This document shows, piece after piece, positions 2,262 through 32,102 of a stretch of 37,839 nucleotides of DNA (positions are counted from its first letter, which is position 1; every line of letters begins with the position of its first letter). The position numbers were made by a program, and so were the translations under genes. A model generated the notes under the pieces. It was not told the origin of the DNA. It searched no databases and saw nothing but the letters and a program-made list of their open reading frames with translations. The DNA comes from a virus: the IMG/VR virus record IMGVR_UViG_3300045988_092680; one strand, given 5' to 3'.

Positions 2262-3608
2262 ATGAATTCAATAGTTGAATATTTAAGAGGACTTGGTTAT
2301 AGTATTAACTCTGATTATTACGCTTATATAAATACTTGGCGTGAGTGGTATTCTGGAAAAGTTAAAAAGTTTCATTCATATAAACAATATAACGGTAAAA
2401 AACAAGTACCAAGAGAAAGATATACTTTAGGTATGGCTAAAAAAGGCTGTGAAGATTGGGCTAATAAGCTTATGAGTGAAAAAGTAACTATCTCCACCAC
2501 TTCTCAAGAAACACTAGACGACATATTGGAAAGGAACGAATTTTGGTTAAATGCTAATCAATTAGTAGAAGAAACTTTTGCGTTAGGTACAGGTGCGTTT
2601 GTAGAATATAAAGCAGGAGATCAACCTGTTATTGATTTTATTATTGCTCCTATGATATTCCCTCTTAAGTGGAAAAAAGGAAGAATAATTGATTGTGCTT
2701 TCGCTAGTTTAATTGAAAGCGGAGATAGAAAAACATATTACGTTAATATACATAAACAAGTTGGAAGTAAATATTGTGTAGAAAATAAAATTATTATTGC
2801 AAATAATGACGGAACATTTAACGAGGGAGAATTACCTAAGAATGTTATGCCGGTTGTATGGAATGATGTTAAAACATTTCAAATAATAAAACCTAATATA
2901 GTAAATAATATTGATATGGGTAATCCTATGGGAATGGCTATATTTGCTAACGCTATCGACGAAATGAAGACTATAGATCTTATTTATGATAGTTATAAAA
3001 ATGAGTTTAATCTTGGTAAAAAACGTATCTTTGTTAAAAGTGGTGCTTTAAATGTAGATTTAGAAAACGGAGACGCTGTTCCAGTGTTTGACGAAAACGA
3101 CATAGAGTTCTATGCAATGCCAGACGAAGACGGAACAGATATGATAAGGGAATCTAAGTTTGATATAAGAGCAGAACAACACGATACAGGCTTACAAACT
3201 AATCTTAATTTATTTGGTAAAAAAATTGGTTTTGGAGATAATGGCTATAAATGGGAAAAAGGACAAGTTAAAACAGCTACTGAAACAATTAGCGATAACT
3301 CTGAGATGTTTAGAAACATACAAAAACACGAAGTTATTCTTGAACCGGCTTTAATTGGTATGGTAGAAGCACTTATCTATTTAAAAACTGGTAAAGTATA
3401 TACAGGAGATACAACGATAAACTTTGACGATTCTATTATAGAAGATATGGCAGAAGTTAAGCGTCAAGCTATGATTGAATATAACGCCGGTATCATTGAT
3501 AAGGTAGAATATTATGTTAGAGTCTATAAAATAACTGAATCTGAAGCTATTAAAAAGATAGAAACTATGGAAGCTAGAAAACCTAAAGAAATGACTTACG
3601 AGGTGTAG
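2262..3608 (+). CDS. Portal protein
   Basis: 448 aa, immediately after terL and before the MuF-like gene; SD GGAGATG upstream. Confidence 0.8.
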   Translation: MNSIVEYLRGLGYSINSDYYAYINTWREWYSGKVKKFHSYKQYNGKKQVPRERYTLGMAKKGCEDWANKLMSEKVTISTTSQETLDDILERNEFWLNANQLVEETFALGTGAFVEYKAGDQPVIDFIIAPMIFPLKWKKGRIIDCAFASLIESGDRKTYYVNIHKQVGSKYCVENKIIIANNDGTFNEGELPKNVMPVVWNDVKTFQIIKPNIVNNIDMGNPMGMAIFANAIDEMKTIDLIYDSYKNEFNLGKKRIFVKSGALNVDLENGDAVPVFDENDIEFYAMPDEDGTDMIRESKFDIRAEQHDTGLQTNLNLFGKKIGFGDNGYKWEKGQVKTATETISDNSEMFRNIQKHEVILEPALIGMVEALIYLKTGKVYTGDTTINFDDSIIEDMAEVKRQAMIEYNAGIIDKVEYYVRVYKITESEAIKKIETMEARKPKEMTYEV

Positions 3609-3611
3609 TTT

Positions 3612-5159
3612 ATGCAAGACGATAAACGCATACAAGAGCTGTACGAAAAAATAGAAGCTGATTTATTGCGTAATATCGCTAGTAGATTAGATATTGAAGA
3701 AATAGACGGCGGTTCTGTTGAGTGGTACACTAGAAAACTTGACGATTTGGGTATGTTATCGAATGAGAATATCAAAGTAATTGCTAAATATACTGGAAAA
3801 ACTACAAAAGAAATAAAACAGTTATTAAAGAAAAGCGGTTATGCTAATATAGAAGAATCAGCCTACAAAGAAGCATTTCAGAAAAAAGTTTTAGCTCAAA
3901 AGGCTGTTCCTTTAATGAAATCTGAATCATTAAAAGAAATATTAAATACTTCTGTATCTAATTCCATTGATTCGTTTAATCTGGTTAATACTACCGCTTT
4001 AGAAAGTGCTAACGAAGAATATCTAAAAATAGTTAATCAAGTATATTTAGAAGTGTCTCAGGGATTATATGATTATAGTAGTTCTGTAAGAAAGGCTGTT
4101 ACTAAACTAGCTGAAAAAGGAATTAAAGGTGCTAGCTATATGCGTACTGACGGAACGAAGATTATAAGAACTTTAGAATCGGCTGTACGTATGCAGGTAT
4201 TAACAGCTAATAATCAATGTATGACAAAAATGCAAGAACAAAGAGCTAAGGAATGGGGTTCTAATCTTGTAGAAGTATCTTCACATATGGGAGCTAGACC
4301 TAGCCACGCTGAATGGCAAGGAAAAATATATATGCTAGAGGGTTCTAGTGCTGAATACCCTAATTTTTATGAAGCTACTGGTTATGGTACTGTTACTGGA
4401 TTATGTGGCGTTAATTGCCGACATACATTCTACCCTTATTTAGAGGGCGTCAGTGAAAAAACATACAAACACTATAATCTTAATGAAAATAAAGAACAGT
4501 ACGAAAGAGAGCAAAAACAACGCCAGTTAGAAAGAAAAATACGTGTAGAAAAGCAAAAAATAATTGTAGCCGAAGAAACTGGAGATAAACTTATGCTTGA
4601 AAAAGCAAGTATTAAGTTAAAAGAACGAAGAAACGATTTAAAAGACTTTATAGAAAAGAATAATCTCACTCGTGATTCTTCAAGAGAGTTTAAATACGGA
4701 TTTAATCGTTCTGTATCACAGAAAGCTACCGTTATTAGCCAAAACGTTGAAAATAAAGCTAATATGGCGTATAATTTAGGTAGTACGGAGAATAATGTTA
4801 AAGCATACCTAAGAGACGCCCCTATTAAGTCAACACTTAGTACAGATTTTGATTTAGATAATTATAGAGAGTCTAAATGGGAAAAACACGATCCTAACAA
4901 TAAGAACTATGACGGTGTATCTAGTCAAGTAACTATTTCAAAAGAATTGACTAAAGAATTGATTAAAAAATATTCTGGTACAGGTGCTTTAGAAAGAAAT
5001 GCTAAAAGTGGCTTATGGCAAAATAAAGAACTTATTCATTCAGATACTGTTGTTGGTAAGGTGTTAGACACAAATAATAATTGGGTTGAAACAAAATCTT
5101 TCAAAATACATTATTCTAAACGAGGAGTACATATTGTACCTACACTTAGAGATAAATAA
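3612..5159 (+). CDS. MuF / SPP1 gp7-like head morphogenesis protein with coiled-coil linker and ~150-aa C-terminal extension
   Basis: MuF-type motifs SSHMGARPSHAEWQGKIY and CGVNCRHTFYPY; KQRQLERKIRVEKQK coiled coil; extra C-terminal domain ending KIHYSKRGVHIVPTLRDK. Confidence 0.8.
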   Translation: MQDDKRIQELYEKIEADLLRNIASRLDIEEIDGGSVEWYTRKLDDLGMLSNENIKVIAKYTGKTTKEIKQLLKKSGYANIEESAYKEAFQKKVLAQKAVPLMKSESLKEILNTSVSNSIDSFNLVNTTALESANEEYLKIVNQVYLEVSQGLYDYSSSVRKAVTKLAEKGIKGASYMRTDGTKIIRTLESAVRMQVLTANNQCMTKMQEQRAKEWGSNLVEVSSHMGARPSHAEWQGKIYMLEGSSAEYPNFYEATGYGTVTGLCGVNCRHTFYPYLEGVSEKTYKHYNLNENKEQYEREQKQRQLERKIRVEKQKIIVAEETGDKLMLEKASIKLKERRNDLKDFIEKNNLTRDSSREFKYGFNRSVSQKATVISQNVENKANMAYNLGSTENNVKAYLRDAPIKSTLSTDFDLDNYRESKWEKHDPNNKNYDGVSSQVTISKELTKELIKKYSGTGALERNAKSGLWQNKELIHSDTVVGKVLDTNNNWVETKSFKIHYSKRGVHIVPTLRDK

Positions 5160-5173
5160 AGGAGTTAAAGATT

Positions 5174-5380
5174 ATGTCAGAAACAGAATTCATTAAGTTT
5201 TTTGGAAAAGATGTGGAAATTGTATTAAATACCGGAGAGTATATTAAAGGTCATTGCGAAACCTTTACCCGCTCTAGTGATAATGATAATGGTATCGCTT
5301 CTCTTTCTATTGCAACTGAAGACGGACTTTTGGAAGTAATGCAAAACGAAGTTGATACAATTAAAACTATTACACTTTAA
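5174..5380 (+). CDS. Small acidic hypothetical protein (candidate immunity partner of the MuF C-terminal domain)
   Basis: 68 aa with AAGGAG SD, directly after the MuF gene and followed by a terminator. Confidence 0.55.
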   Translation: MSETEFIKFFGKDVEIVLNTGEYIKGHCETFTRSSDNDNGIASLSIATEDGLLEVMQNEVDTIKTITL

Positions 5381-5426
5381 TTACACTTAATTAGTGTTAT
5401 TATGGTATTGTGATAATTTATAAAAG

Positions 5427-5449
5427 AACTGACTATTGTCGGTTTTTTT
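5427..5449 (+). terminator. Rho-independent terminator
   Basis: aactgac-tatt-gtcggtt stem (one G-U pair) followed by tttttg. Confidence 0.5.
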
Positions 5450-5543
5450 GTTTATTATGTTTTTACTCGATTACAAGAGAATAAAACGGTTATTTCGACT
5501 TTACAGCCTACAAGCTGAATAAAAACTGAGAGGAGAAGATAAT

Positions 5544-6107
5544 ATGGATTGGTTAAAAGAAATTTTAACAAAAGCAGGAGTTGAAAACGAAAAGATTACT
5601 ACTATTGTAGAAAGTGCAAAGAAAGAAGTTCCTACGTACTATGTACCTAAGAATGACTTTAACGAAAAAGTAACAGAGGTAAAAACTCTTACTACTGAAA
5701 AAGAAACTCTTACTACTCAACTTGAGGAACTAAAGAAAGTAGATCCTACTAAGTTGCAAGAGGAAATCACTAAACTACAACAAGCTAATAAGGATTTAGA
5801 AACAAACGGTAAAAAGGAATTAGCTGACGTTAAACGTATGAGTGCTATTGATTTAGCAATCGCTAATTCTAAAACTATTGACGCTATCTCTTTAAAAGCT
5901 AATTTAGATTTAGATAAGATTACTTATGACGAAAAGACTGGTAATTTATCTGGAATCGACGAACAAATAAGTAGTATTCGTGAATCTAAAAAGTATTTAT
6001 TTACTGAAGCTCCTACTGACGGAGGTATGCCACAAGGCGGAATACCACCAAAAGAAAAAACTATTGACGACGAAATCCGTGAGAATATTTACGGCGAGTC
6101 AAAATAA
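5544..6107 (+). CDS. Scaffolding protein (phage GP20-like)
   Basis: MDWLKEILTKAGVE...YVPKNDFNEKV, long coiled coil; sits before the major capsid gene. Confidence 0.7.
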   Translation: MDWLKEILTKAGVENEKITTIVESAKKEVPTYYVPKNDFNEKVTEVKTLTTEKETLTTQLEELKKVDPTKLQEEITKLQQANKDLETNGKKELADVKRMSAIDLAIANSKTIDAISLKANLDLDKITYDEKTGNLSGIDEQISSIRESKKYLFTEAPTDGGMPQGGIPPKEKTIDDEIRENIYGESK

Positions 6108-18026: not shown

Positions 18027-18338
18027 TTGGAAATGGTAATACAATGGTTAGTTCCTACTATATTAACTGCCTTAAGTGGTTATTTAGTAAAAGAACTCAA
18101 AGAAAATAAAAAAAGTAATACAGCCATTAAAGATAGTATGGTTTTATTATTGAGAAGTCAAATAACTGGTAAAATAGAAAAATATATGGAACTTGGTTAT
18201 TTACCTGATTACGCTAGATCCTGCATAGAAGACTTATTTACACAATATAAGTCTTTAGGTGGAAATCACGGCGTAGATCTATTAGTTAATCAATGTTTTA
18301 ATCTACCACCAGTTAATGTAAATAAAGGAGGAAAATAA
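18027..18338 (+). CDS. Membrane protein, holin-like (TTG start)
   Basis: N-terminal TM helix VIQWLVPTILTALSGYLV; AAGGAGGA 6 nt before TTG. Confidence 0.5.
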   Translation: MEMVIQWLVPTILTALSGYLVKELKENKKSNTAIKDSMVLLLRSQITGKIEKYMELGYLPDYARSCIEDLFTQYKSLGGNHGVDLLVNQCFNLPPVNVNKGGK

Positions 18339-18339
18339 A

Positions 18340-18537
18340 ATGAAAGAAAAAATTAGTAAATTGATTGATGTTAAATCTATTGCAACACTGACATTGTTAT
18401 TGACTTTAGAAATCATTACTATTATGGTTTTTTTTAAAGGAAATATGGATTTGATTCAGTTAGTATTCACTTTATTTAGCAACATTGTAACAATGGTATT
18501 TACGTATTTTTTTACAAAGAAAAAAGATACAGAATAG
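18340..18537 (+). CDS. Holin
   Basis: 65 aa, two hydrophobic helices, charged C-terminus KKKDTE. Confidence 0.6.
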   Translation: MKEKISKLIDVKSIATLTLLLTLEIITIMVFFKGNMDLIQLVFTLFSNIVTMVFTYFFTKKKDTE

Positions 18538-18549
18538 GAGGAAATAATT

Positions 18550-20310
18550 ATGGCACAAATAATTAGAACTCGTAGAGATATAAAAACGAACTGGGAAACT
18601 GAAAACCCAGTTCTAGCTCTAGGAGAACAAGGCTACGAAACTGATACAGGAAAATTAAAATTTGGCGACGGTAATACTAGCTGGAATAACCTACCATATT
18701 TTAGAGGAGCTTTAACAGAAGAATTAGAAGAAAAATTAGATTCTGTACCAACTCCTAGTAATATAGTAGTAATAGAAAATATATCAAGCTTGTTTAAGTC
18801 TGTTTCATATAACAGTGCTAACGGAGTTTTGACTTTTACACAATATAATGATACAATAGTTACTGTCGATTTGCCACTAGAGTTAATAGTTAGTAGCGGA
18901 CATTATGATAGCGATACTAAGAGTATTATACTCGTTCTCGCTAATCAAGAAACTATCACTATTCCTGTTAGTGATCTAGTTAATGAGTATTATGCTGATA
19001 ACACTACGTTAGAATTAAAACAAGTCAACGGAAAGTTGACTTTTAATGTAAAAGACGGTGTTTTTGTAAAAGCTCAAACTGGTAAAGGATTATCGACTAA
19101 TGATTATTCAACTTTGGAAAAAAATAAGTTAGCTGGAATAGCATCAGGAGCACAAGTTAATAAGGTTGAAAAAATACTTATTAACGGTGTGGAACAATCT
19201 ATAACAGATAAAACAGTAAATCTCGAAGTGAAAACAACCTCAAATAAGATATACGGTATAAAAAGATCGTTATCTTCTAATACATCTTCAGCTTGGGAAA
19301 GAACAGACGATTCAGTTGGATTGGTAGCTAATGCAACTAAAGACGGTAGTTCTGTTGTTAATAATTTTGATAGTATCTACCCTTGGTCTGATATTATTAC
19401 ATACAATTATGATACTCAAGCTAAAGCAATAACCGCTTATTATGGAGAACCTACTTTTAAGTTTGACGGTTCTAATGGCGAAGTATTAACTAGAATACCA
19501 GAATTTTATTATAAGAGATATGTTTCTAACAACGTAGAATATATTCTCATTTCGAGAGAAAAACACGACGGATTCATTAAAAGCGAACAATTTAGTGTTG
19601 GACGTTATACTTATTCAGGTTCAGCCTCAAGAGTGTATAGCCGAAGTGGTTATGAGCCATTTAGAAATTATAATATAACCAATGCTAGAGCTTATGCTAG
19701 GGCTTTAGGAGACGGATTCGGACAACTAGATTGGCATTATTTAATTATTCAGATGTTATATTTGGTAGAGTATGCTAATTATAATTGTCAATCTATGTTA
19801 GGACAAGGTCGTGTTTCAAGTAGTACACCTAACAACAGTGGCGGTTGTGATACCCTAGGTATGAAATCTGGTTGCTTGGGTAATGACGGAACATATTCTG
19901 TAATATATAGAGGTATTGAGGATCCTTACGGAAATATTTGGCAATTTATAGACGGTATAAATGTAAAAGATCACGTTCCGTATGTATGTTATGATTCTAG
20001 TAAGTACGCTGTTGACACATTTGACGGAGCTTATCACGTATTAAATTTCACAATGCCGTCAGCTAATGGCTATGCTTCTAAATTGGGTTATGATTCAAAT
20101 AATCCCCTTATGTCTTTAACAACTGAAGCTTCTGGTAGTTCTACTACTAATATGTGTGATTATTACTATCAGAATGACGGGAATCGTATCGCTCTTGTCG
20201 GCGGTCGTTTTGATTATGGTAGTGCTGCTGGGTTGTGGTTTTGGACTTTTGACAATACTTCGTCTAATACTTATACTTCGTACGGTGCTCGACTTCTTAG
20301 AAACCAGTAA
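18550..20310 (+). CDS. Tail fibre / receptor-binding protein, DGR target (Mtd_N-like N-terminus, C-type-lectin/FGE-like variable tip)
   Basis: N-terminus RRDIKTNWETENPVLALGEQGYETDTGKLKFGDGNTSWNNLPYF; C-terminus ALVGGRFDYGSAAGLWFWTFDNTSSNTYTSYGARLLRNQ*. Confidence 0.85.
   Translation: MAQIIRTRRDIKTNWETENPVLALGEQGYETDTGKLKFGDGNTSWNNLPYFRGALTEELEEKLDSVPTPSNIVVIENISSLFKSVSYNSANGVLTFTQYNDTIVTVDLPLELIVSSGHYDSDTKSIILVLANQETITIPVSDLVNEYYADNTTLELKQVNGKLTFNVKDGVFVKAQTGKGLSTNDYSTLEKNKLAGIASGAQVNKVEKILINGVEQSITDKTVNLEVKTTSNKIYGIKRSLSSNTSSAWERTDDSVGLVANATKDGSSVVNNFDSIYPWSDIITYNYDTQAKAITAYYGEPTFKFDGSNGEVLTRIPEFYYKRYVSNNVEYILISREKHDGFIKSEQFSVGRYTYSGSASRVYSRSGYEPFRNYNITNARAYARALGDGFGQLDWHYLIIQMLYLVEYANYNCQSMLGQGRVSSSTPNNSGGCDTLGMKSGCLGNDGTYSVIYRGIEDPYGNIWQFIDGINVKDHVPYVCYDSSKYAVDTFDGAYHVLNFTMPSANGYASKLGYDSNNPLMSLTTEASGSSTTNMCDYYYQNDGNRIALVGGRFDYGSAAGLWFWTFDNTSSNTYTSYGARLLRNQ
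20191..20298 (+). repeat. DGR variable region (VR0), in frame at the 3' end of the fibre gene
   Basis: Bounded by GCTCTTGTCGGCGGT and GGTGCTCGACTTCTT, blocks shared with four downstream cassettes; only 2 AAY codons. Confidence 0.8.
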
Positions 20311-20373
20311 GTGGGGGTTTGGGGGCGACCAGCCTCCCATAATAAAACTTCTTTTTTACCGACGAAAGTCGGT
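20311..20373 (+). promoter_or_regulatory. G-rich element plus two hairpins downstream of VR0 (IMH/target-recognition-like, or the fibre-gene terminator)
   Basis: gtgggggtttgggggcgaccagcctccca (GC-rich stem 20320-20339) and accgac-GAAA-gtcggt (20358-20373). Confidence 0.4.
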
Positions 20374-20432
20374 CGAGCTAAATTTATTTTTTGGGATTTG
20401 ATGTGGCGAGTACCGTTCGACTTTTAGCTTTC

Positions 20433-20543
20433 GCTCTTGTCGGCGGTGGTTATACTACCGACGCTGTACGTTGCGGGTTGTGGTGTTGGACTTTTGACAA
20501 TACTTCGTCTAATACATATACTTCGTACGGTGCTCGACTTCTT
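20433..20543 (+). repeat. Cassette C1: orphan VR-like copy (111 nt, one extra codon; VR-type 3' end CTTCTT)
   Basis: 3' 69 nt differ from VR0 at only 2 positions; 2 AAY codons; no credible gene context. Confidence 0.75.
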
Positions 20544-20596
20544 ATTTTTTCGGGGACTTGGTGTGGTTTGCACTTTCCTTTTGTTTGTGTTTCTTT

Positions 20597-20704
20597 GCTC
20601 TTGTCGGCGGTGCTTGGTCTAATGGTACGGAAGCTGGGTTGTGGTATTGGAACGTGAATGAAGCTTCGTCTAATGCGTGGACGAATGTCGGTGCTCGACT
20701 ACTT
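20597..20704 (+). repeat. Cassette C2: TR-like copy (5 AAY codons; 3' end CTACTT)
   Basis: Same conserved 5', central and 3' blocks; encodes ALVGGAWSNGTEAGLWYWNVNEASSNAWTNVGARLL in a frame with no start context. Confidence 0.7.
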
Positions 20705-20766
20705 ATATCATTTTATAAATATAGGGATTTGATGTGTTTGAGTGCGTGATTTGTGGCGTTTTTATT

Positions 20767-20874
20767 GCTCTTGTCGGCGGTCGTTTTGATAATGGTAGTA
20801 ATGCTGGGTTGTGGTATTGGAATTACAACAATGATTCGTCGTTGGCTAACACCACTGTCGGTGCTCGACCTCTT
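20767..20874 (+). repeat. Cassette C3: best template-repeat candidate for the 5' two-thirds of VR0 (6 AAY codons; 3' end CCTCTT)
   Basis: Cassette positions 1-66 versus VR0: 8 mismatches, 7 at C3 adenines. Confidence 0.7.
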
Positions 20875-20922
20875 ATTTTGGGATTTGGTGTGTTTTGTAC
20901 CGGCGTTTTCAGTGTTCGGCAG

Positions 20923-21030
20923 GCTCTTGTCGGCGGTAATTGGGGCAATACTACTCAAGCTGGGTTGTGGTATTGGAACTTCAATTGGTCTGGGACTGAT
21001 TACAACACTAATGTCGGTGCTCGACTACTT
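20923..21030 (+). repeat. Cassette C4: TR by position (~120 nt upstream of the RT start; 6 AAY codons; 3' end CTACTT)
   Basis: Same conserved blocks; followed by a ~120-nt spacer with hairpin ttgcc-cctt-ggcaa (21062-21075), then the RT. Confidence 0.65.
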
Positions 21031-21153
21031 ATATTTATAAATTACTTACACATCATTTTCCTTGCCCCTTGGCAAAAATTAGTCGCTCTGGGTTGGCTTA
21101 GTAGGTTAATTCTCGAAAAGTCGGCAGGCAAATATAAGAATATGGAGCCAGAA

Positions 21154-22218
21154 ATGAAAAGAAAAGGAAATATTTATAATGAAATATTAGAACTCAACAA
21201 TATTGAATCAGCAATATTTAAAGCTTCTGTTGGTAAGACGCACCGTAAGAGTGTTGAAAAAATACTAGACGCCCCTACGTATTACGCTATGCAAGTGCAA
21301 AAAATGTTATCAGATAGAAGCTATATTCCTAGTCCGTATATTGAAATGAAAATAAGAGACGGAGCTAGCAAAAAAGAAAGAATTGTATTTAAACCTAGGT
21401 TTTACCCAGATCAAATAATACACTGGGCTTTAATGAATAAAGTAGAACCACTTTTTAAAAGAGGTATGTACGAATTTTGCTGTGCTTCTATTAAAGGGCG
21501 TGGAATACAACGAGGAATGAATTATGTTAAAAGAATCCTAGTTAATGATAGAAAACATACTAAATATTGTTTAAAATTAGATATTAAAAAGTTTTACCCC
21601 AGTATAGATAAAGAAATACTAAAAAAGAAGTTTAGAAAAATAATCAAAGATAAAGATACATTATATTTAATGGATCTAATAGTAGATAGTTCTACAGAGG
21701 GTGTTCCAATAGGTAATTTTACTTCACAATGGTTTGCTAATTACTATTTACAAGATTTGGATCACTATATAAAAGAAGAATTAAAGGTTAAATACTATAT
21801 AAGATATATGGACGATATGGTATTATTCTCTAATAATAAAAAAGAACTACGTAAGTGCAAATATGCTATTGACGAGTTCTTAACACGAGAACATTTAAGG
21901 ATTAAGGAAAATTGGCAATTATTTAAAACTGATAGCCGTCCTATTGACTTTCTTGGTTATCGCTTTTACAGAGGTTATACTACATTACGAAGAAGTAATT
22001 TTTTAAGAATCAAAAGAAGAATCAAGAAAATATCAAAGAAAGAAGAACTTAATTTTAAAGACGCTTGTGCGATAATGAGTTATAATGGTTGGATTATACA
22101 TTCTGATTCATATAACTACACTCAAAAATATTTAAAGCCTTATGTTGATTTTAAAAAGGTTAAGGAGGTAATTAAAAATGAAAACAGAAAGCACAATAAA
22201 ACCGGAAATAAAATTTAG
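21154..22218 (+). CDS. DGR-type reverse transcriptase
   Basis: MKRKGNIYNEI... start with GGAG 6 nt upstream; motifs KPRFYPDQIIHWAL, LKLDIKKFYPSI, VPIGNFTSQWFANYYL, YIRYMDDMVLF, IDFLGYRF. The ORF is open from 20734, but that upstream part is cassette DNA. Confidence 0.9.
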   Translation: MKRKGNIYNEILELNNIESAIFKASVGKTHRKSVEKILDAPTYYAMQVQKMLSDRSYIPSPYIEMKIRDGASKKERIVFKPRFYPDQIIHWALMNKVEPLFKRGMYEFCCASIKGRGIQRGMNYVKRILVNDRKHTKYCLKLDIKKFYPSIDKEILKKKFRKIIKDKDTLYLMDLIVDSSTEGVPIGNFTSQWFANYYLQDLDHYIKEELKVKYYIRYMDDMVLFSNNKKELRKCKYAIDEFLTREHLRIKENWQLFKTDSRPIDFLGYRFYRGYTTLRRSNFLRIKRRIKKISKKEELNFKDACAIMSYNGWIIHSDSYNYTQKYLKPYVDFKKVKEVIKNENRKHNKTGNKI

Positions 22219-22669
22219 TATAGAGAACATTAAAGACAACACTTGTGAGGTTGTCTTTTTTGATAATATTTCCGAGGAAACAAAGGAAGAACAAACTGTA
22301 TATGTATATTATACTTATAGAATGAAAACAGCTTATAGACCTAATTTAGATATTATTATAGAACAAAACTACAATAAATGGTTAGAAGCTGTAAAAAATT
22401 ATGATTATAATTTAAAAGCTGAAGAAATAAGAAATAAAAGAAATCAACTTTTAGCTGACAGTGATAAAAATATGGTATTAGATAGAATAAATTTTGAAAT
22501 ACCTAAAGAAATAACTTTGACTAATATAGTAATTGTTATAAAAGAACTGTTTAACACTATAAGTACAATAAAAAACGGAGCTTGGGCTGTTTATAGACAA
22601 GAACTTCGAGATATTACAAAACAAAATGGATTTCCTTATGAAGTGGAATTTCCAAAAAAACCTGAATAA
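22178..22669 (+). CDS. Tail fibre assembly / chaperone-like protein (Caudo_TAP-like C-terminus)
   Basis: RNKRNQLLADSDKNMVLDR...WAVYRQELRDITKQNGFPYEVEFPKKP; AAGGAGG SD; overlaps the RT 3' end by 41 nt. Confidence 0.6.
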   Translation: MKTESTIKPEIKFSIENIKDNTCEVVFFDNISEETKEEQTVYVYYTYRMKTAYRPNLDIIIEQNYNKWLEAVKNYDYNLKAEEIRNKRNQLLADSDKNMVLDRINFEIPKEITLTNIVIVIKELFNTISTIKNGAWAVYRQELRDITKQNGFPYEVEFPKKPE

Positions 22670-22724: not shown

Positions 22725-22868
22725 ATGGAAGAAAAAATTACAGAAGAAAAAGTAATCGAATCTGATTGCGAAAAAGAATTATCAGTGGAAGAAATTCAAA
22801 CTACTTTTAATGAAGATAGTTTAGATGTTTTAACTGAGGAAGGAAGTGTTGAAAATGTCATACTTTAA
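22725..22868 (+). CDS. Small acidic hypothetical protein (47 aa)
   Basis: AAAGGAGG SD before the ATG at 22725; MEEKITEEKVIESDCEKELSVEEIQ... Confidence 0.45.
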   Translation: MEEKITEEKVIESDCEKELSVEEIQTTFNEDSLDVLTEEGSVENVIL

Positions 22869-23844
22869 GATTAGAACTAGTTTACCTGAATCAGGTAATA
22901 AATTATATAACAATGCTTCAGCTGGAGGCTATAGTAGATGTATAACAGGTAGTCCTACTAGATCAGGTCTTAACGTCTTATCAAATTGTGTAGGCTGGTC
23001 TTGTTCGAGGTTTAATGAGATATATAATGAAATTACTGGTTATAAAGGTATGAAATTTTGGCAATTAAATTGCAATGCTGAGAACTTTATAGAAAGAGCT
23101 AAGTCAGTAGGACTAGAAGTGGTTAGCTACCCAGTATTAGGTGGTATTATGGTTTGGCAAAGAGGAAATACTTTATCTGGTTCTGACGGTGCGGGACACG
23201 TGGAAGTTGTCGAAGATATTTATAACAGTTCAAGTATTTATACTAGTGCTTCTAATTATGGTGGCACTACTTTTTATAACGCAAGACGTTCTAATTCTAA
23301 CGGACGTTGGGGATTAGGTTCAGCTTATAAATTTAGAGGTTGTATAGTTAATCCAGCTGTTGGCAAAATAACAACAAGTAATAGCGGAAGCAATGAGCCA
23401 ACAGATAATACTAATGGCTACACTGGTAAATTTAAGATTGGAGATAAAGTAATTATAAATGGTAACTTATATGTAAGCTCTAAGGCTGTTAATCCTAGTG
23501 GAGCTGTTAGTAATAAAACTACAATTATTACTAGAGTTGCTGAAAATACAGCACACCCATATAATACAACAGGAGATCTAGGCTGGATTAACGAAAGCGA
23601 TATAAGACTATATGAAGAATCTAAACCAGATGTAAAACCTGATACAAGTTTAAAGGTTGGAGATAAAGTTAAAATTGTTGGAACAGGTAATGGTTCTAGT
23701 TATGGAACTTCAAATACTGCTTATGGTATTGGTTGGGAAAGAGAAATACTAAAAGTATGGACTGGTAGAAAATACCCATATCAAGTCGGAAACTCAACTG
23801 GAACTACCGGATTCTATCAAGAAAGTGCTTTACAAAAAATATAA
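22855..23844 (+). CDS. Endolysin: N-terminal CHAP-type peptidase/amidase plus two SH3-like cell-wall-binding repeats
   Basis: NCVGWSCSRFNEIY (Cys) and GAGHVEVVEDIY (His); repeats FKIGDKVIINGNLYVSS and LKVGDKVKIVGTGNGSS. Confidence 0.85.
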   Translation: MSYFKIRTSLPESGNKLYNNASAGGYSRCITGSPTRSGLNVLSNCVGWSCSRFNEIYNEITGYKGMKFWQLNCNAENFIERAKSVGLEVVSYPVLGGIMVWQRGNTLSGSDGAGHVEVVEDIYNSSSIYTSASNYGGTTFYNARRSNSNGRWGLGSAYKFRGCIVNPAVGKITTSNSGSNEPTDNTNGYTGKFKIGDKVIINGNLYVSSKAVNPSGAVSNKTTIITRVAENTAHPYNTTGDLGWINESDIRLYEESKPDVKPDTSLKVGDKVKIVGTGNGSSYGTSNTAYGIGWEREILKVWTGRKYPYQVGNSTGTTGFYQESALQKI

Positions 23845-23996: not shown

Positions 23997-25805
23997 TTAG
24001 AACTTAGGGTGTATTACTATTGAAAAATTACTTTCGTAGCCTCTACCGCCTTTTTCTTTTTTATATTCAATATAAGAAATAACAGATTTTAGTAATTTAT
24101 TCTTTTTTTCAGCTGATGTTACTTTGTAATATGAATCAATTACTTTTTCTATTTTAGGCAATAGTTTTTCTATTCTATCCTTATTAAGTTTTATTTGATA
24201 TTTATTTAGTTCTTTTTCTGTGTTCGTTATTTTATCTTTTATTGTTTTTGTTCTTTTTGTGAATTCTTGAGGAGTATAAATTCCTTGTTCTACAAGTTCG
24301 TAAGCTTTATCTAATTGTTTATTATATTTATCTAATTCCTTACTTAATGATACAAACATAACATTATCGTCTTCCTCAGCTGGATTATACGTAGCTAGGA
24401 GCTCTTTTTGAGAAGAAATGTATTCTTGTAAGGCTTTAATTGTTTCTTGCTCTACAAGGGCTAAATTTGAGCCTATATTAGTACAATGAGCCTTAGGACA
24501 TATTAAAGTATCTTCGTGAGGTTCAATTAAATTACTTTCATAAGTAGTAATAGCTTTATCAAACTCTGTAGTATTGATATTTAATAGTTTTTTTAATTCT
24601 TCCCACTTATCAGCGTAAGGCATAGTAAACTTTGATTGATTAGAAGCAAACCAGTGATCTACACAATGCTTTCTAACTTTTAAAGCTGTAGCTATATCTC
24701 TTAAACTATATTCGCCTTTATGTTCTCTAAGACACAATCTTAATTTTTCTTTGTCTATGTCATATTTACGACGTAATTTGGGTTCTTGTTTTTTGTTGTC
24801 GTAATATGGTCTTCTTTGCATAGAACGTCCACAATCAGCACATTTAACTAATGTAGCAAGTGGATTTTGTAATTCGGTATTATGTTTTGTACTGGCTTTA
24901 TTTGGTTTGATTCCTTGTACTATATCAAACAATTCATTGCTAATAATTGCTGGGTGTAATCCCTCTACAAGAATTAAATCTTCGCTATTTCCTTTTTTAC
25001 GCTTCTTAATTATCTGTCCGTTAATTAAAATCTTCTTTTGTTTATTTGAGTTCCAACGTATCTTACCTATGTATATTGGATTAGATAACATTCCTTTAAT
25101 AGTAGCTGGAGTCCAAACATCAGATTTTTTAGGTTTAAAGTCTAAAGTATTTAACCAATTACAAATAATATCATAGCCCATACCGTCAGCACGTTTCTGA
25201 TACATTTCTTTAACTATTTCTGCTTCCTCAGACACTGGTTCTAGCGTATAACCTTTGCCATATTTAACACGTACCTTTTTATAGCCAAAAGGTGGCTCTG
25301 AAGCACAATATTTTCCGTCTAATACATTTGCAATACGTGCTCTTTGCATACGTCTATTTATAGTCTTATATTCTCTACGAGACATAAATAATCCAAACTC
25401 AAAATATTCCTCGTCCTCATCACTATTAGGATCATATATTTTATTTAGTGTTATTATTTTTGTATTTGAATATTTAAAAGCCTGTGTTACTGTTCCTTGG
25501 TCTTTAGCGTCTCCACGTGTAAGACGTTCTACTTCAACAACTAATATACCGTCGATAGTTCCGGCTTCAACATTTTTAAGGACTTCTTGCATTTCTGGTC
25601 TTTCTTGTATTGATTCCCCGGAAACAACTTCACGATAGATTTTTCTTATCTTAATTCCTAATTGATTAGCACGATCTTTTAAAAACTTTTCGTGCTGTTT
25701 TAAAGTATCAAACTTTTTAAGTTTTTCTAATTCCATATCAGCACGTGATTTTCTTAAATATGCGTCATATATTCCGTTAGGATCTAAAGTTACTGTTATA
25801 TACAT
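23997..25805 (-). CDS. int: Large serine recombinase (integrase)
   Basis: N-terminal resolvase domain YLRKSRAD...ILVVEVERLTRG, recombinase domain, zinc ribbon CADCGRSM, C-terminal coiled coil. The second ATG (25805) has AGGAGG 6 nt upstream. Confidence 0.9.
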   Translation of the reverse strand: MYITVTLDPNGIYDAYLRKSRADMELEKLKKFDTLKQHEKFLKDRANQLGIKIRKIYREVVSGESIQERPEMQEVLKNVEAGTIDGILVVEVERLTRGDAKDQGTVTQAFKYSNTKIITLNKIYDPNSDEDEEYFEFGLFMSRREYKTINRRMQRARIANVLDGKYCASEPPFGYKKVRVKYGKGYTLEPVSEEAEIVKEMYQKRADGMGYDIICNWLNTLDFKPKKSDVWTPATIKGMLSNPIYIGKIRWNSNKQKKILINGQIIKKRKKGNSEDLILVEGLHPAIISNELFDIVQGIKPNKASTKHNTELQNPLATLVKCADCGRSMQRRPYYDNKKQEPKLRRKYDIDKEKLRLCLREHKGEYSLRDIATALKVRKHCVDHWFASNQSKFTMPYADKWEELKKLLNINTTEFDKAITTYESNLIEPHEDTLICPKAHCTNIGSNLALVEQETIKALQEYISSQKELLATYNPAEEDDNVMFVSLSKELDKYNKQLDKAYELVEQGIYTPQEFTKRTKTIKDKITNTEKELNKYQIKLNKDRIEKLLPKIEKVIDSYYKVTSAEKKNKLLKSVISYIEYKKEKGGRGYESNFSIVIHPKF

Positions 25806-25806
25806 C

Positions 25807-26074
25807 TTACACCTCCTCATTCATAAGCTTATCAACTTCTTTTTCATATTCTTTAATTTTATTGACATCATAATTATCGAGATGTCCTAATTTATAATGT
25901 AACATTTCGTGTCTGAAATGCTTTGTTTTTTTCTTCCTCCGAAAGTTTATCGTTTATTACTATATAGGTACTATTTTCTATTTCCAAAATAAAAGCTCTG
26001 ATTTTATCTGGTAGAATCATTATTTTAAGTTTTAACCCATTTTCTTTAGCAATTCTCGACCAACTCTCGAACAC
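25807..26074 (-). pseudogene. ImmA/IrrE-like (HExxH) metallopeptidase gene interrupted by a frameshift in an A7 tract
   Basis: GTG start with AGGAGGT SD. Frame 1 ends 25892. After the run at 25926-25932 another frame reads KTKHFRHEMLHYKLGHLDNYD...NEEV*, ending at 25807. Confidence 0.6.
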
Positions 26075-26607: not shown

Positions 26608-26967
26608 TTATTTATCTTCTTTTTTGATTATAGTAACAATATCTACGAATTGTTTTAATTCTTCGTCGTTTAAGTCTCCTAGTTTGTCAAATAAAACTTT
26701 AGCGTGTTCGTTTTCAAGTAATCTATTATACTTATCTAAATTTTCATTTTCATATATAGAAGAAACTTCTTTTCCTAAAAGATAGTCTGTTGTTGTGTTT
26801 AGAGCTGTAGCTATGTCTGCTAATATATCAGGTCTAGGTTTTTGTAGATCATTTATATAGCGTGAAATTGCTGCTTCAGTAACTCCTATTTTATTTGCTA
26901 ATTTTCGTTGTGTCATATTATTTTGATTTAATAATTGTTGCAATCTATTACCAAAATCATAATTCAT
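26608..26967 (-). CDS. CI-like repressor (XRE-family HTH)
   Basis: MTQRKLANKIGVTEAAISRYINDLQKP; divergent from the cro-like gene. Confidence 0.85.
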   Translation of the reverse strand: MNYDFGNRLQQLLNQNNMTQRKLANKIGVTEAAISRYINDLQKPRPDILADIATALNTTTDYLLGKEVSSIYENENLDKYNRLLENEHAKVLFDKLGDLNDEELKQFVDIVTIIKKEDK

Positions 26968-31661: not shown

Positions 31662-32102
31662 ATGAATAAAATTGAATTAACTGGACGATTAACTAGGGAT
31701 CCTGATTTAAGGTACACACCTAATAATCGCCCTGTCGCTCAATTTACTATTGCAGTAAATAGACGATATGCGAAAGAAACTGACGAAATAAAAGCTGATT
31801 TCTTCCCTATTGTAGTATGGGGAAAACAAGGCGAAAATTGTAAAACTTATCTTTTAAAAGGAAGTATGGTTGGAATAATAGGAACTTTAAGAAATCGAAG
31901 TTATGAAAAAGACGGAAATACACGTTACATTACTGAAGTAATAGCTGAAGAAGTAGAATTCTTAACACCTAAAAAAACAACTGATAATTCTAATAACGAA
32001 ACTATACCAGGAGAAGAACATACTCCATATGATTATCAAGAGGAGCAAGCGTCAATATATGATAATGAATTTCAATTAAATGACGACGATTTACCCTTTT
32101 AA
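31662..32102 (+). CDS. ssb: Single-stranded DNA-binding protein
   Basis: MNKIELTGRLTRDPDLRYTPNN...FTIAVNR; acidic tail DDDLPF. Confidence 0.9.
   Translation: MNKIELTGRLTRDPDLRYTPNNRPVAQFTIAVNRRYAKETDEIKADFFPIVVWGKQGENCKTYLLKGSMVGIIGTLRNRSYEKDGNTRYITEVIAEEVEFLTPKKTTDNSNNETIPGEEHTPYDYQEEQASIYDNEFQLNDDDLPF

Follow-up and report, generated by a model that had tools for sequence, protein, structure and literature searches.

The locus at 18550..22218 of the window (the whole stretch of viral DNA that was analysed, 37,839 nt, IMG/VR record IMGVR_UViG_3300045988_092680) raises a simple question. A tail-fibre gene is followed by four divergent, non-coding copies of its own 3′ end (cassettes C1–C4) and then by a reverse transcriptase (RT) gene; which of these copies supplies the variable repeat (VR) of the fibre, and by what route? 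The best explanation, to which we assign a probability of about 0.85, is that a temperate siphovirus-like prophage hosts a diversity-generating retroelement (DGR) of a multi-template kind, in which one IMH-marked VR and a tandem array of four silent, translatable templates serve to rewrite the last ~30 codons of the target. The features of the locus, all on the + strand, are as follows.

18550..20310, +, target gene, a 586-aa Mtd-like tail-fibre/receptor-binding protein
20191..20298, +, variable repeat (VR), 108 nt, the target's final 36 codons ahead of RNQ*
20313..20339, +, IMH-like GC-rich element and GC hairpin (GGGGGTTTGGGGGCGACCAGCCTCCC), directly 3′ of the VR
20358..20373, +, second hairpin (ACCGACGAAAGTCGGT), downstream of the VR
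20393..20406, +, m1, Stop duplex 5′ strand (GGGATTTGATGTGG), upstream of C1
20433..20543, +, cassette C1, 111 nt with one extra codon, A-poor, VR-type 3′ end (GACTTCTT)
20553..20566, +, m2, Stop duplex 5′ strand (GGGACTTGGTGTGG), upstream of C2
20597..20704, +, cassette C2, template
20724..20737, +, m3, Stop duplex 5′ strand (GGGATTTGATGTGT), upstream of C3
20767..20874, +, cassette C3, template
20880..20893, +, m4, Stop duplex 5′ strand (GGGATTTGGTGTGT), upstream of C4
20923..21030, +, cassette C4, RT-proximal template, in the single-TR position of canonical relatives
21048..21061, +, single Stop duplex 3′ strand (ACACATCATTTTCC), start of the spacer RNA, unique in the window
21062..21079, +, short stem-loop TTGCC-CCTT-GGCAA followed by an A-run, 3′ of the Stop strand
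21063..21138, +, structured spacer RNA upstream of the RT gene, Rfam RT-18 RNA (RF03021)
21154..22218, +, RT ORF, 354 aa, DGR reverse transcriptase without a maturase or endonuclease domain

Target, cassettes and reverse transcriptase

A preliminary description of this DNA had reported the RT ORF with its motifs (VPIGNFTSQWFANYYL and YIRYMDDMVLF, both present), the fibre-like ORF ending in ALVGGRFDYGSAAGLWFWTFDNTSSNTYTSYGARLLRNQ*, and non-coding copies of its last ~108 nt between the two genes, and all of these were reproduced. The ~108-nt unit occurs in five in-register copies, starting at 20191 (VR), 20433 (C1), 20597 (C2), 20767 (C3) and 20923 (C4), with no additional copy on either strand of the window, so that four cassettes stand against one VR, whereas in the canonical design a single TR serves one or more VRs. 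All cassettes of the window remain translatable. Among 198 unique cassettes, two have an in-frame stop and two a frameshift, leaving 194 open and in frame; stops in the other two frames are found in 90 and 191 of them.

The target carries an N-terminal Mtd_N domain (Pfam, E 2.7e-12). An AF2 model of its C-terminal 356 aa (residues 231–586, pLDDT 96.6) has TaqVP (5vf4, E 8e-11) as its top Foldseek match, followed by Mtd (1yu0-4) and TvpA (2y3c), and the modelled domain (residues ~231–586) is of the C-type-lectin/FGE fold typical of DGR targets, as had been proposed earlier. The 90%-identity cluster of this protein has 789 member sequences, which differ in the VR. Compared with two sister loci at 99% identity (L081 and L161), the VR region shows 21–23 differences and the cassettes 0–1; the VR thus varies from one sister genome to another and the cassettes do not, in keeping with one-way transfer, and this bears out the proposal that the phage diversifies its receptor-binding tip.

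Actual information transfer is confined to roughly 20206..20283 of the VR, and its last ~8 nt (..CGACTTCTTA) are VR-specific and never overwritten. Directly downstream, GGGGGTTTGGGGGCG and its hairpin are present in a single copy in the window, as expected of an IMH. This GC-rich element is kept 3′ of the VR in related loci and is missing 3′ of the cassettes, and by its distribution would be the feature that marks the recipient copy. The second hairpin is also kept in relatives, with varying sequence, and may be a terminator-like or target-recognition hairpin.

The RT matches Pfam RVT_1 (E 7.5e-18), and its VPIGNFTSQ segment is the [I/L]GxxxSQ motif of DGR enzymes. The closest solved structure is that of Bordetella phage BPP-1 bRT (8ub7), which aligns over the full length (residues 2–321, E 2.5e-36) with the IGxxxSQ motifs in register. 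Assignment to group II introns was rejected, the NCBIfam model group_II_RT_mat scoring 77 bits against a cut-off of 300, as was assignment to retrons or Drt systems, the models of which all fell far under their cut-offs. An Rfam scan of 20150..21300 found no intron or retron RNA. These matches agree with the earlier DGR reading and identify the protein as a DGR-type enzyme.

No Avd-type Pfam match was found in the part of the window ORFs that was scanned (the neighbouring ORFs and 20 further small ones), and the interval between VR and RT is too short to house any accessory gene, whether for Avd or an HRDC protein. The BPP-1 enzyme requires Avd. Avd is not universal in DGRs, 278 of which had Avd homologues in a survey set (Handa et al., bioRxiv 10.1101/2023.10.23.563531).

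Donors of the variable repeat

The preliminary description counted eight mismatches between the VR and C3 over cassette positions 1–66, seven of them on C3 adenines, and this count is exact (25, 34, 35, 50, 56, 59 and 61 are A; 60 is C). Past about position 55 the VR is unlike C3 and identical to C1 save for one C1 adenine, a C1-like 3′ half that the description had missed. The window VR can be written as a mosaic of C3 (positions 1–54; 4/7 adenines and 0/47 other bases changed) and C1 (positions 55–108; 1/13 and 0/41), so that 5 of 20 donor adenines and none of the 88 other bases differ.

If C4 alone worked as TR, with C1–C3 as decaying duplication relics (pseudo-TRs or pseudo-VRs), then the VR should trace to C4. 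C4 does occupy the single-TR position of more distant relatives, two VRs of the lineage come from C4 alone (L242 and L249; 9–10/23 A, 0/85 non-A), and some strains have lost cassettes. Against C4, however, the window VR shows 25 non-A mismatches, compared with none for the C3 and C1 mosaic, and on this count C4 is not its donor, a point also absent from the preliminary description. In many other loci the donor is an internal cassette with adenine-only differences, and nearly all cassettes are still open and in frame. The donor assignments already contradict a single template, and we regard this alternative as very improbable.

The lineage of the window comprises 15 contigs with cassettes that are identical or differ by 1 nt. 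In addition to the C4 cases, the donor is C1 for the whole VR in both L081 (4/19 A, 1/92 non-A) and L161 (0/19 A), and C2 in L243 (10/19 A, 1/89 non-A). Mosaic VRs combine C3+C1 (the window), C2+C1, C4+C3, C4+C3+C2 or C2+C4, mostly with 0 non-A mismatches; C2 supplies parts in L245, L246, L247 and L251, C3 the 3′ halves in L244, L246 and L253, and C4 parts of others. They are often joined at an invariant middle block (GCTGGGTTGTGGT).

In the pool of clean donor calls from the clade, changes affect 213/638 adenines of the donors and 25/2719 of their other bases (odds ratio 54, p 1e-136), and the claim of adenine-restricted mutagenesis is overwhelmingly borne out once donors are correctly assigned. 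No position in the arrays was without donors: the 42 donor segments included 10 that were RT-proximal and 8 that were VR-proximal, and uniform use would predict 9.1 of each. Two sister loci may have the same array and yet different donors (L020/L066 and L093/L094). A clean in-array donor was not found for the VR in 6 of 37 array loci. Across these consensus sequences of metagenome assemblies, any cassette can be shown to act as a source of the VR, with adenine-specific substitutions on transfer, the signature of a DGR RT. The loose description of the cassettes as templates therefore stands as far as the DGR is concerned, but was incomplete, since it did not include multiple templates, donor switching or mosaics.

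All of these data are short-read assemblies, the copies have blocks of 13–19 nt in common, and array length varies between contigs of the same phage, so that assemblers might have mis-joined hypervariable VRs and repeated cassettes into false mosaics and donor switches. The common blocks are, however, far below the assembly k-mers (k99–k141 in the contig names), and the same VR protein was recovered on 3–5 independent contigs from different samples (P0122, P0123, P0124 and P0127). Arrays are base-identical across independent studies, with only the VR differing, and chimeras would not yield adenine-specific substitutions. An artefact of this kind is very hard to reconcile with the data.

RecA-type gene conversion in the style of Neisseria pilE/pilS or Borrelia vlsE, with the RT only adding adenine mutations from the last TR, would likewise go with a silent array, one expression site and mosaics whose segments meet in conserved blocks. 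The VRs of L190 (0/15 A) and L161 (0/19 A) are unmutated cassette copies, exact or nearly so, and VR and cassettes therefore probably also exchange some sequence by gene conversion at the DNA level. One contig (L241) carries a VR-C4 fusion/deletion, showing that inter-copy recombination can occur, and slot 1 has a VR-type 3′ end. Differences between VR and internal donor are nevertheless adenine-specific (L012 against C2, 13/24 A and 0/84 non-A; L004 against C6, 11/23 A and 0/83 non-A), and an RT copying only the last TR would impose the non-A bases of that TR on the VR. It follows that the internal donor must itself have been reverse-transcribed. The base-specific adenine signature, and an RT gene and RNA elements integral to the locus, are at odds with a system of the pilS/vls type working by recombination only. 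Recombination may play some part but cannot account for most of the transfer, and we consider this explanation unlikely, though less so than the other two.

Stop duplex, template choice and the array

The motifs m1–m4 are copies of the Stop duplex 5′ strand, and each can pair with the single 3′ strand at 21048..21061, with energies of -16.6 (m1), -15.7 (m2), -18.5 (m3) and -16.2 (m4) kcal/mol; for m1 the shuffled control gave -7.3 ± 2.2 kcal/mol. When the whole RNA is folded, the MFE structure pairs the 3′ strand with m3. RNAalifold on 63 loci pairs 21048..21061 with the upstream motif, with compensatory changes in 6 of 8 pairs. The 5′-strand motif was found in 132/132 unique inter-cassette spacers, and in 126 of these all 8/8 pairs can form with the 3′ strand of their own locus. 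Its columns are 92–100% conserved except for three wobble (R/Y) positions (0.51–0.72), whereas the next 14 nt are 27–66% conserved. Such conservation ahead of each cassette, and not in the adjacent spacer, again speaks against C1–C3 being relics.

Only 17 nt separate C4 from the Stop 3′ strand. The stem-loop that follows has four predicted pairs, three of which carry 21–22 double (compensatory) changes each among 63 sequences; by comparison, the stem-loop and its A-run correspond to the BPP-1 cPRT Stop stem-loop and A-minor adenosines (Handa et al., bioRxiv 10.1101/2023.10.23.563531). The spacer RNA matches the full RF03021 model (60.9 bits against a gathering score of 41.3, E 4.7e-10), and its long stem shows strong covariation. 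RT-18 RNA is listed by Rfam as an sRNA motif, and here can be placed in the DGR spacer RNA, right after the Stop strand. Covariation, the RT-18 match and comparison with BPP-1 thus agree that the spacer RNA is structured and that, as in DGRs, a duplex of the cPRT Stop type brackets the TR. In BPP-1, cis-primed reverse transcription requires the corresponding Stop structure (Handa et al., bioRxiv 10.1101/2023.10.23.563531).

In the mechanism that we propose for a multi-template DGR, the whole array and spacer would be transcribed as one RNA, in which the single Stop 3′ strand would pair alternatively, and nearly iso-energetically, with one of the n upstream strands and so set up the RT on different cassettes. 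Alternative Stop pairing may in this way let the RT use any cassette. Each cassette would be primed from its own 3′ end, at the invariant hairpin block, and mosaic VRs would arise by a change of template, or by several rounds of partial homing, at the conserved middle block. The choice of Stop duplex alone predicts the end of the cDNA, not its start. The 5′ part of mosaics came from the RT-proximal donor in ~15 cases and the opposite was seen in ~4; a simple model of one long cDNA predicts the polarity opposite to that of most mosaics. Diversification would have two tiers: first, scaffolds, one-codon length variants among them, would be selected and recombined, and then adenines within the chosen scaffold would be mutagenised. 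Four templates in place of the usual one would greatly widen the receptor-binding sequences that can be reached.

RT relatives at 72–86% identity have 2–10 cassettes per array, and almost all of the more distant ones have one TR. Arrays gain, lose and occasionally rewrite cassettes. The slot nearest the VR is itself open to rewriting: in L245/L246 it holds C1′, which reads as C4[1-37]+C2[38-67]+C1[68-108] with 14 adenine changes and one other, between identical flanks. In L085, one cassette is an adenine-only derivative of another. The VR-specific 3′ end is found on 12 cassettes, which are A-poor and lie in slot 1 in 8 of the 12 cases, and the further a cassette lies from the RT, the lower its adenine content tends to be (rho -0.36, p 5e-7). 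Tentatively, and at somewhat less than even odds, the array could be a two-way heritable memory, in which mutagenised mosaic sequences of VR type are written back, mainly to the VR-proximal slot, kept silent and in frame, and later re-used and re-mutated. If so, the phage would keep a record of earlier receptor-binding solutions, and its templates would themselves evolve.

Relationship to known systems

The DGR type itself is already known, and what sets this locus apart is the architecture of many templates for one VR; a literature search did not find a description of such multi-template arrays. The BPP-1 DGR (mtd/avd/TR/brt) resembles the locus in RT family and IGxxxSQ motif, in adenine-specific mutagenesis and in its target, an Mtd_N tail-fibre protein whose C-type-lectin fold has the VR at its C-terminus. 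Both also have a GC-rich IMH-like element and hairpin 3′ of the VR, a constant difference between VR and TR at the 3′ end, and a spacer RNA in which a cPRT Stop duplex brackets the TR and is accompanied by a stem-loop and A-run. The BPP-1 DGR has one template, whereas here there are four alternatives per VR (up to ten in relatives), each preceded by its own Stop duplex 5′ strand, and VRs are mosaics of several templates. Further differences are that Avd was not detected here and that the distance from last template to Stop strand is very short.

Multi-target DGRs occur in Treponema denticola, Legionella and Stenotrophomonas. In zeta crAss-like phages there are TR1-VR1/TR2-VR2/TR3-VR3 pairs (PMC12386605), and MetaCSST yields 'multiple TR' predictions (PMC6642488). 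All of these are alike in having more than one repeat copy per RT. In multi-target and multi-pair DGRs, one TR serves many VRs or there are separate TR-VR pairs; here the arrangement is inverted, and tandem TRs serve a single VR, with switching and mosaics.

Neisseria pilE/pilS, Borrelia vlsE/vls and the chicken Ig pseudo-V genes likewise have one expressed site, adjacent silent in-frame donors, conserved blocks and mosaic transfer. These systems work by DNA recombination only, whereas the present locus bears the adenine-specific signature of reverse transcription and has an RT gene and a structured RNA built into it.

Target gene, reverse transcriptase and genomic setting

The locus consists of a target gene, its variable repeat (VR), four silent cassettes (C1–C4) and a reverse transcriptase (RT) gene:

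18550..20310 (+), target gene, 586 aa, ending in ALVGGRFDYGSAAGLWFWTFDNTSSNTYTSYGARLLRNQ and the stop
20191..20298 (+), VR, at the 3′ end of the target gene
directly after the VR, IMH-like GC-rich element and hairpin, GGGGGTTTGGGGGCGACCAGCCTCCC; sole occurrence in the window
starting at 20433, C1 (one extra codon)
starting at 20597, C2
starting at 20767, C3
starting at 20923, C4
21154..22218 (+), RT gene, 354 aa, containing VPIGNFTSQWFANYYL and YIRYMDDMVLF

The closest solved relative of the RT is the diversity-generating retroelement (DGR) RT of Bordetella phage BPP-1 (8ub7, E 2.5e-36), with an end-to-end alignment that includes the IGxxxSQ motif. Matches to group II intron and retron RTs, the types that would have spoken against a DGR, were 25 orders of magnitude weaker, and their NCBIfam scores lay below the cut-offs. 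The target protein carries an Mtd_N domain. Its full-length AF2 model was poor (pLDDT 61), and a model of the C-terminal 356 residues (pLDDT 96.6) was used instead; among solved structures this matched TaqVP first (E 8e-11), followed by PvdO/FGE-like folds, Mtd and TvpA. No Avd-like gene was detected beside the element, nor in a further 20 small ORFs of the window. All features tested for DGR membership were present except Avd and a single template repeat (TR) per VR. The preliminary description had reported both ORFs and the RT motifs, which were reproduced, and had interpreted them as a DGR, an interpretation borne out by the RT relatives, the target fold and the adenine-specific changes. 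The locus is almost certainly an active DGR.

A 163-aa ORF (22178..22669) with a tail assembly chaperone (Phage_tail_APC) C-terminus has its first 41 nt within the 3′ end of the RT gene. Such an ORF directly follows the RT in all sister contigs, and the DGR therefore appears to be an insertion that separates the fibre gene from that of its chaperone. The target gene is preceded by two short ORFs of 103 and 65 aa (18027..18537), one of them hydrophobic and possibly holin-like. The lysin varies among sister phages, being a CHAP-domain protein in the window (region 22846..23844) versus Peptidase_M23 plus CW_7 at the same place in contigs L241 and L244; region 6599..7369 of contig L081 is listed alongside this difference, and homology with the sister phages resumes near window position 23635. 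A 607-aa ORF (23997..25820, −) has, by sequence alone, the look of a large serine recombinase. Together with an HTH_3 repressor-like protein (26608..26967, −), an SSB gene (31662..32102, +), and minor-capsid and DUF859 tail genes, it suggests that the window covers the greater part of a temperate, siphovirus-like prophage. Related contigs carry conflicting host labels ('Melainabacteria', Bacilli, Mycoplasma, Clostridia); the CotJB and Mn-catalase genes flanking L241 point to a spore-forming Bacillota host.

Donors of the variable repeat

A repeat finder returned five in-register copies of a ~113-nt unit, all with an invariant start GCTCTTGTCGGCGGT, an invariant middle block GGGTTGTGGT and the end GGTGCTCGAC; a profile search of both strands found no sixth copy in the 37.8-kb window. 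No single cassette accounts for the window VR, as one count gave 12–23 mismatches per cassette at bases other than adenine. C4, which is nearest the RT and occupies the expected TR place, is ruled out by the 25 such mismatches of a separate comparison. The preliminary description had compared the VR with C3 and counted seven of eight mismatches over positions 1–66 on C3 adenines; the count is exact and the adenine bias holds over this stretch, while C3 as the only template, which that comparison implied, fails beyond about position 55. By adenine-tolerant Viterbi assignment, the VR is C3[1–54] joined to C1[55–108], with 5/20 donor adenines and 0/88 other bases changed.

Sister contigs have the same cassettes with other VRs. 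L081, a MAG contig, is 98.7% identical to the window over 6.6 kb, and its cassettes and those of L161 match those of the window except for 1 nt. The VRs of these two contigs differ from the window VR at 21–23 positions, include the extra codon of C1, and represent C1 copied over its full length; of the five mismatches in L081, four fall on C1 adenines. Twelve further contigs (L242–L253) were added by retrieving the coding DNA of eight variant proteins from the 789-member target cluster, giving a lineage set of 15 with the window, L081 and L161.

Donors of the VR in the phage lineage (donor adenines changed, A; other donor bases changed, non-A)
C1: L081, L161 (L081: 4/19 A, 1/92 non-A)
C2: L243 (10/19 A, 1/89 non-A)
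C4: L242, L249 (9–10/23 A, 0/85 non-A)
C3+C1: window (5/20 A, 0/88 non-A)
C2+C1: L247
C4+C3: L244, L253
C4+C3+C2: L246
C2+C4: L245, L251

All four window cassettes therefore serve as donors, and these assignments contradict the view that only C4 works.

In total, 240 loci with related RTs were gathered from viral, genome and metagenome collections. Loci with RT identity up to ~70% have a canonical VR (about −500) and a single TR (about −240), except L067, which has two cassettes. At 72–86% identity, the loci carry arrays of 2–10 cassettes with a period of 150–165 nt, and their sources are viral contigs and MAGs of Bacilli, 'Mollicutes' and Clostridia from gut and rumen. Members of the clade are frequent in gut metagenomes of humans and animals (hundreds of contigs), and one 90% cluster holds 789 target variants. 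A clean donor call (at most three non-A mismatches) was obtained in 31 of the 37 array loci with an identifiable VR; pooled over these, changes affect 213/638 donor adenines and 25/2719 other bases (odds ratio 54, p 1e-136). Donors occur at every array position, and of 42 segments, 10 are RT-proximal and eight VR-proximal, where uniform use expects 9.1 each. Base-identical arrays can have different donors (C1 in L020 and C2 in L066; C6 in L093 and C7 in L094).

These results show that any cassette can be the donor, that transfer is adenine-mutagenic, and that mosaic joints fall in the conserved middle block; we estimate a probability of about 0.9 that several cassettes act as templates. Pure recombination of cassettes into the VR cannot produce adenine-specific differences to internal donors. 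Two VRs are unmutated cassette copies (L190, L161) and L241 carries a VR–cassette fusion, so some exchange at the DNA level probably contributes as well. Mosaics could also arise as assembly artefacts, which is unlikely: the shared blocks of 13–19 nt are far below the k of assemblers, the same VR proteins occur on 3–5 independent contigs, and arrays are base-identical between studies.

Of 198 unique non-VR cassettes, two have an in-frame stop and two a frameshift, with stops in the other two frames in 90/198 and 191/198. They are untranslated in situ yet open, which indicates selection for their use as coding templates. Cassettes at all array loci are 105, 108 or 111 nt long (e.g., window C1, 20433..20543) and target proteins 586, 587 or 588 aa, and a donor switch thus also alters loop length, which adenine mutagenesis alone is unable to do. 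One frame of 494 aa (20734..22218) spans C3, C4 and the spacer and continues into the RT gene, and such read-through explains the 441–495-aa 'RT' proteins called in sister contigs (P0128–P0130); the true RT start is most likely the ATG at 21154.

Spacer RNA, mosaic polarity and array turnover

In canonical relatives, the TR is bracketed by GGGAYTTGRTGTGT 30–50 nt upstream and its complement ACACATCAYTTTCC 15–25 nt downstream. RNAalifold on 63 loci recovered this long-range duplex with compensatory changes in 6/8 pairs, a stem-loop right after it (21–22 double changes at 3/4 pairs) followed by an A-run, and one further covarying stem. The same layout of duplex, stem-loop and adenosines is found in the BPP-1 DGR, where cis-primed reverse transcription depends on the 'cPRT Stop' (upstream:spacer duplex, stem-loop and A-minor adenosines), which also terminates the cDNA (bioRxiv 10.1101/2023.10.23.563531). 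The window spacer (21063..21138) is a full-length match to the Rfam RT-18 RNA (RF03021; 60.9 bits, gathering score 41.3), and this sRNA motif can here be assigned to the spacer RNA of the DGR, following the Stop strand.

In arrays, the upstream Stop strand is repeated before each cassette while the downstream strand and stem-loop are single. The motif is present in 132/132 unique inter-cassette spacers, 126 of which allow 8/8 core pairs with the 3′ strand of their own locus. Motif columns are 92–100% conserved, bar three wobble (R/Y) positions (0.51–0.72), against 27–66% in the next 14 nt. The four possible duplexes of the window are nearly iso-energetic (−15.7 to −18.5 kcal/mol; shuffles −7.3 ± 2.2). 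Stop motif GGGATTTGRTGTGT (20393..20406) and the IMH-like GGGGGTTTGGGGGCG (20313..20327) are alike at 9/14 positions. Promoter and terminator hits in the array were no commoner than in shuffled sequence. A sigma-70-like near-consensus (TTGACA, 17 nt, TATACT; 11/12) lies inside the VR (20249..20277) and C1 (20494..20522), where the C1 copy would read into the remaining array; it arises from the codons FDNTSSNTYT and is probably coincidental.

The last ~8 nt are never transferred: every VR ends in ..CGACTTCTTA regardless of donor, and donors end in ..CTACTTA, ..CCACTTA or ..CTTATTA, a fixed 3′ difference comparable to IMH versus IMH*. We infer that array and spacer would form one RNA, in which the single Stop 3′ strand (21048..21061) could pair with one or another of the upstream strands, and that priming of the RT would take place at the hairpin block GTCGGTGCTCGAC, which is invariant and lies at the 3′ end of each cassette, so that different cassettes could be copied. 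Template switching at the middle block, or successive 3′-anchored partial homing events, may then give rise to mosaics. This alternative Stop-duplex mechanism has, in our judgement, not quite an even chance of being right. Inspection by eye of cassette 3′ flanks against the spacer gave no reliable template:primer pairing.

Mosaics are polar (window, L084, L085, L015, L023, L168, L170, L179, L244–L253): in ~15 independent cases the cassette nearer the RT supplies the 5′ part and the more distant one the 3′ part, and in ~4 the order is reversed, with the last cassette supplying the 3′ part in three of these. One long cDNA over the array, integrated by its two ends, would join a 5′ part from the RT-distal donor to a 3′ part from the RT-proximal donor; it predicts only the minority polarity (about 4/19) and was rejected. 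None of the models considered predicts the polarity cleanly. Speculatively, switching might be limited to cassettes inside the closed loop of the Stop duplex, or truncated cDNAs might be more frequent from distal cassettes.

Arrays also turn over. Within the phage lineage they read C1-C4, C1′-C2-C3-C4, C1-C3-C4, C2-C3-C4, C3-C4 or C4 alone, and some VRs retain segments of cassettes gone from their own array. Slot 1 of L245 and L246 holds C1′, with only nine adenines and flanks 100% identical to the window, composed of C4[1–37] (5/8 A, 0/29 non-A), C2[38–67] (6/7 A, 1/23 non-A) and C1[68–108] (3/8 A, 0/33 non-A); the silent slot itself has therefore been rewritten with a VR-type mosaic. The VR-specific 3′ end occurs on 12 unique cassettes, including window C1, with eight in slot 1, and these are adenine-poor (14.2 versus 19.8 adenines, p 1e-4). 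Adenine content drops away from the RT (rho −0.36, p 5e-7, relatedness ignored). L085 has a cassette derived from another one by adenine-only change (11/24 A, 1/84 non-A). Write-back into the array is probable. Slot differences in other lineages could not be read as adenine-only rewriting, being too diverged or with donors missing; the clean cases are just L245/L246 slot 1 and L085 copy 3, and a regular write-back function is a tentative proposal that we hold to be somewhat doubtful.

In L241 (ERZ1304599 NODE_448, 3001..5937), the equivalent of window 20206..20922 is deleted and the VR 5′ block is joined to that of the last cassette, giving a 978-aa target–cassette–spacer–RT fusion ORF (P0002) and leaving neither IMH nor array. 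The one copy left combines a 5′ half derived from C4, with adenine changes, and a 3′ half equal to C2. Recombination may have collapsed the array, or the contig may be misassembled.

Multi-template architecture and known systems

The literature searched yielded no account of alternative templates arranged in tandem to serve one VR, which does not imply absence elsewhere; the large DGR surveys and tools consulted are silent on such arrays. Some DGRs predicted by MetaCSST have more than one TR, but with 'corresponding VRs' (PMC6642488), zeta-crAss phages have three separate TR–VR pairs (PMC12386605), and the 'multiple TRs' of T. denticola represent several strains in one metagenome. INPHARED holds no near-identical phage genome, only 35–53-nt RT-motif matches to crAss-like phages.

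In its architecture the locus is a new variant: a multi-template DGR that switches donors, forms mosaics and probably writes sequence back into its array. It is also a natural dissection of what a DGR RNA needs: the upstream Stop strand is duplicated per template and the other spacer RNA is single, so the choice of template and start site by the RT is directly testable, and for engineering it suggests a way of placing several templates on a single DGR RNA. In a single-template DGR, only adenine-containing codons vary, on one fixed scaffold. With divergent templates open to exchange and recombination ahead of mutagenesis, the reachable sequence space is multiplied, and the array alters invariant scaffold residues as well as loop length (105-, 108- and 111-nt cassettes). 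The phage would gain fast, reversible jumps between receptor-binding solutions. The logic is similar to that of the pilS and vls silent-cassette systems, or of V-segment choice followed by hypermutation, with the difference that transfer here is RT-mediated.
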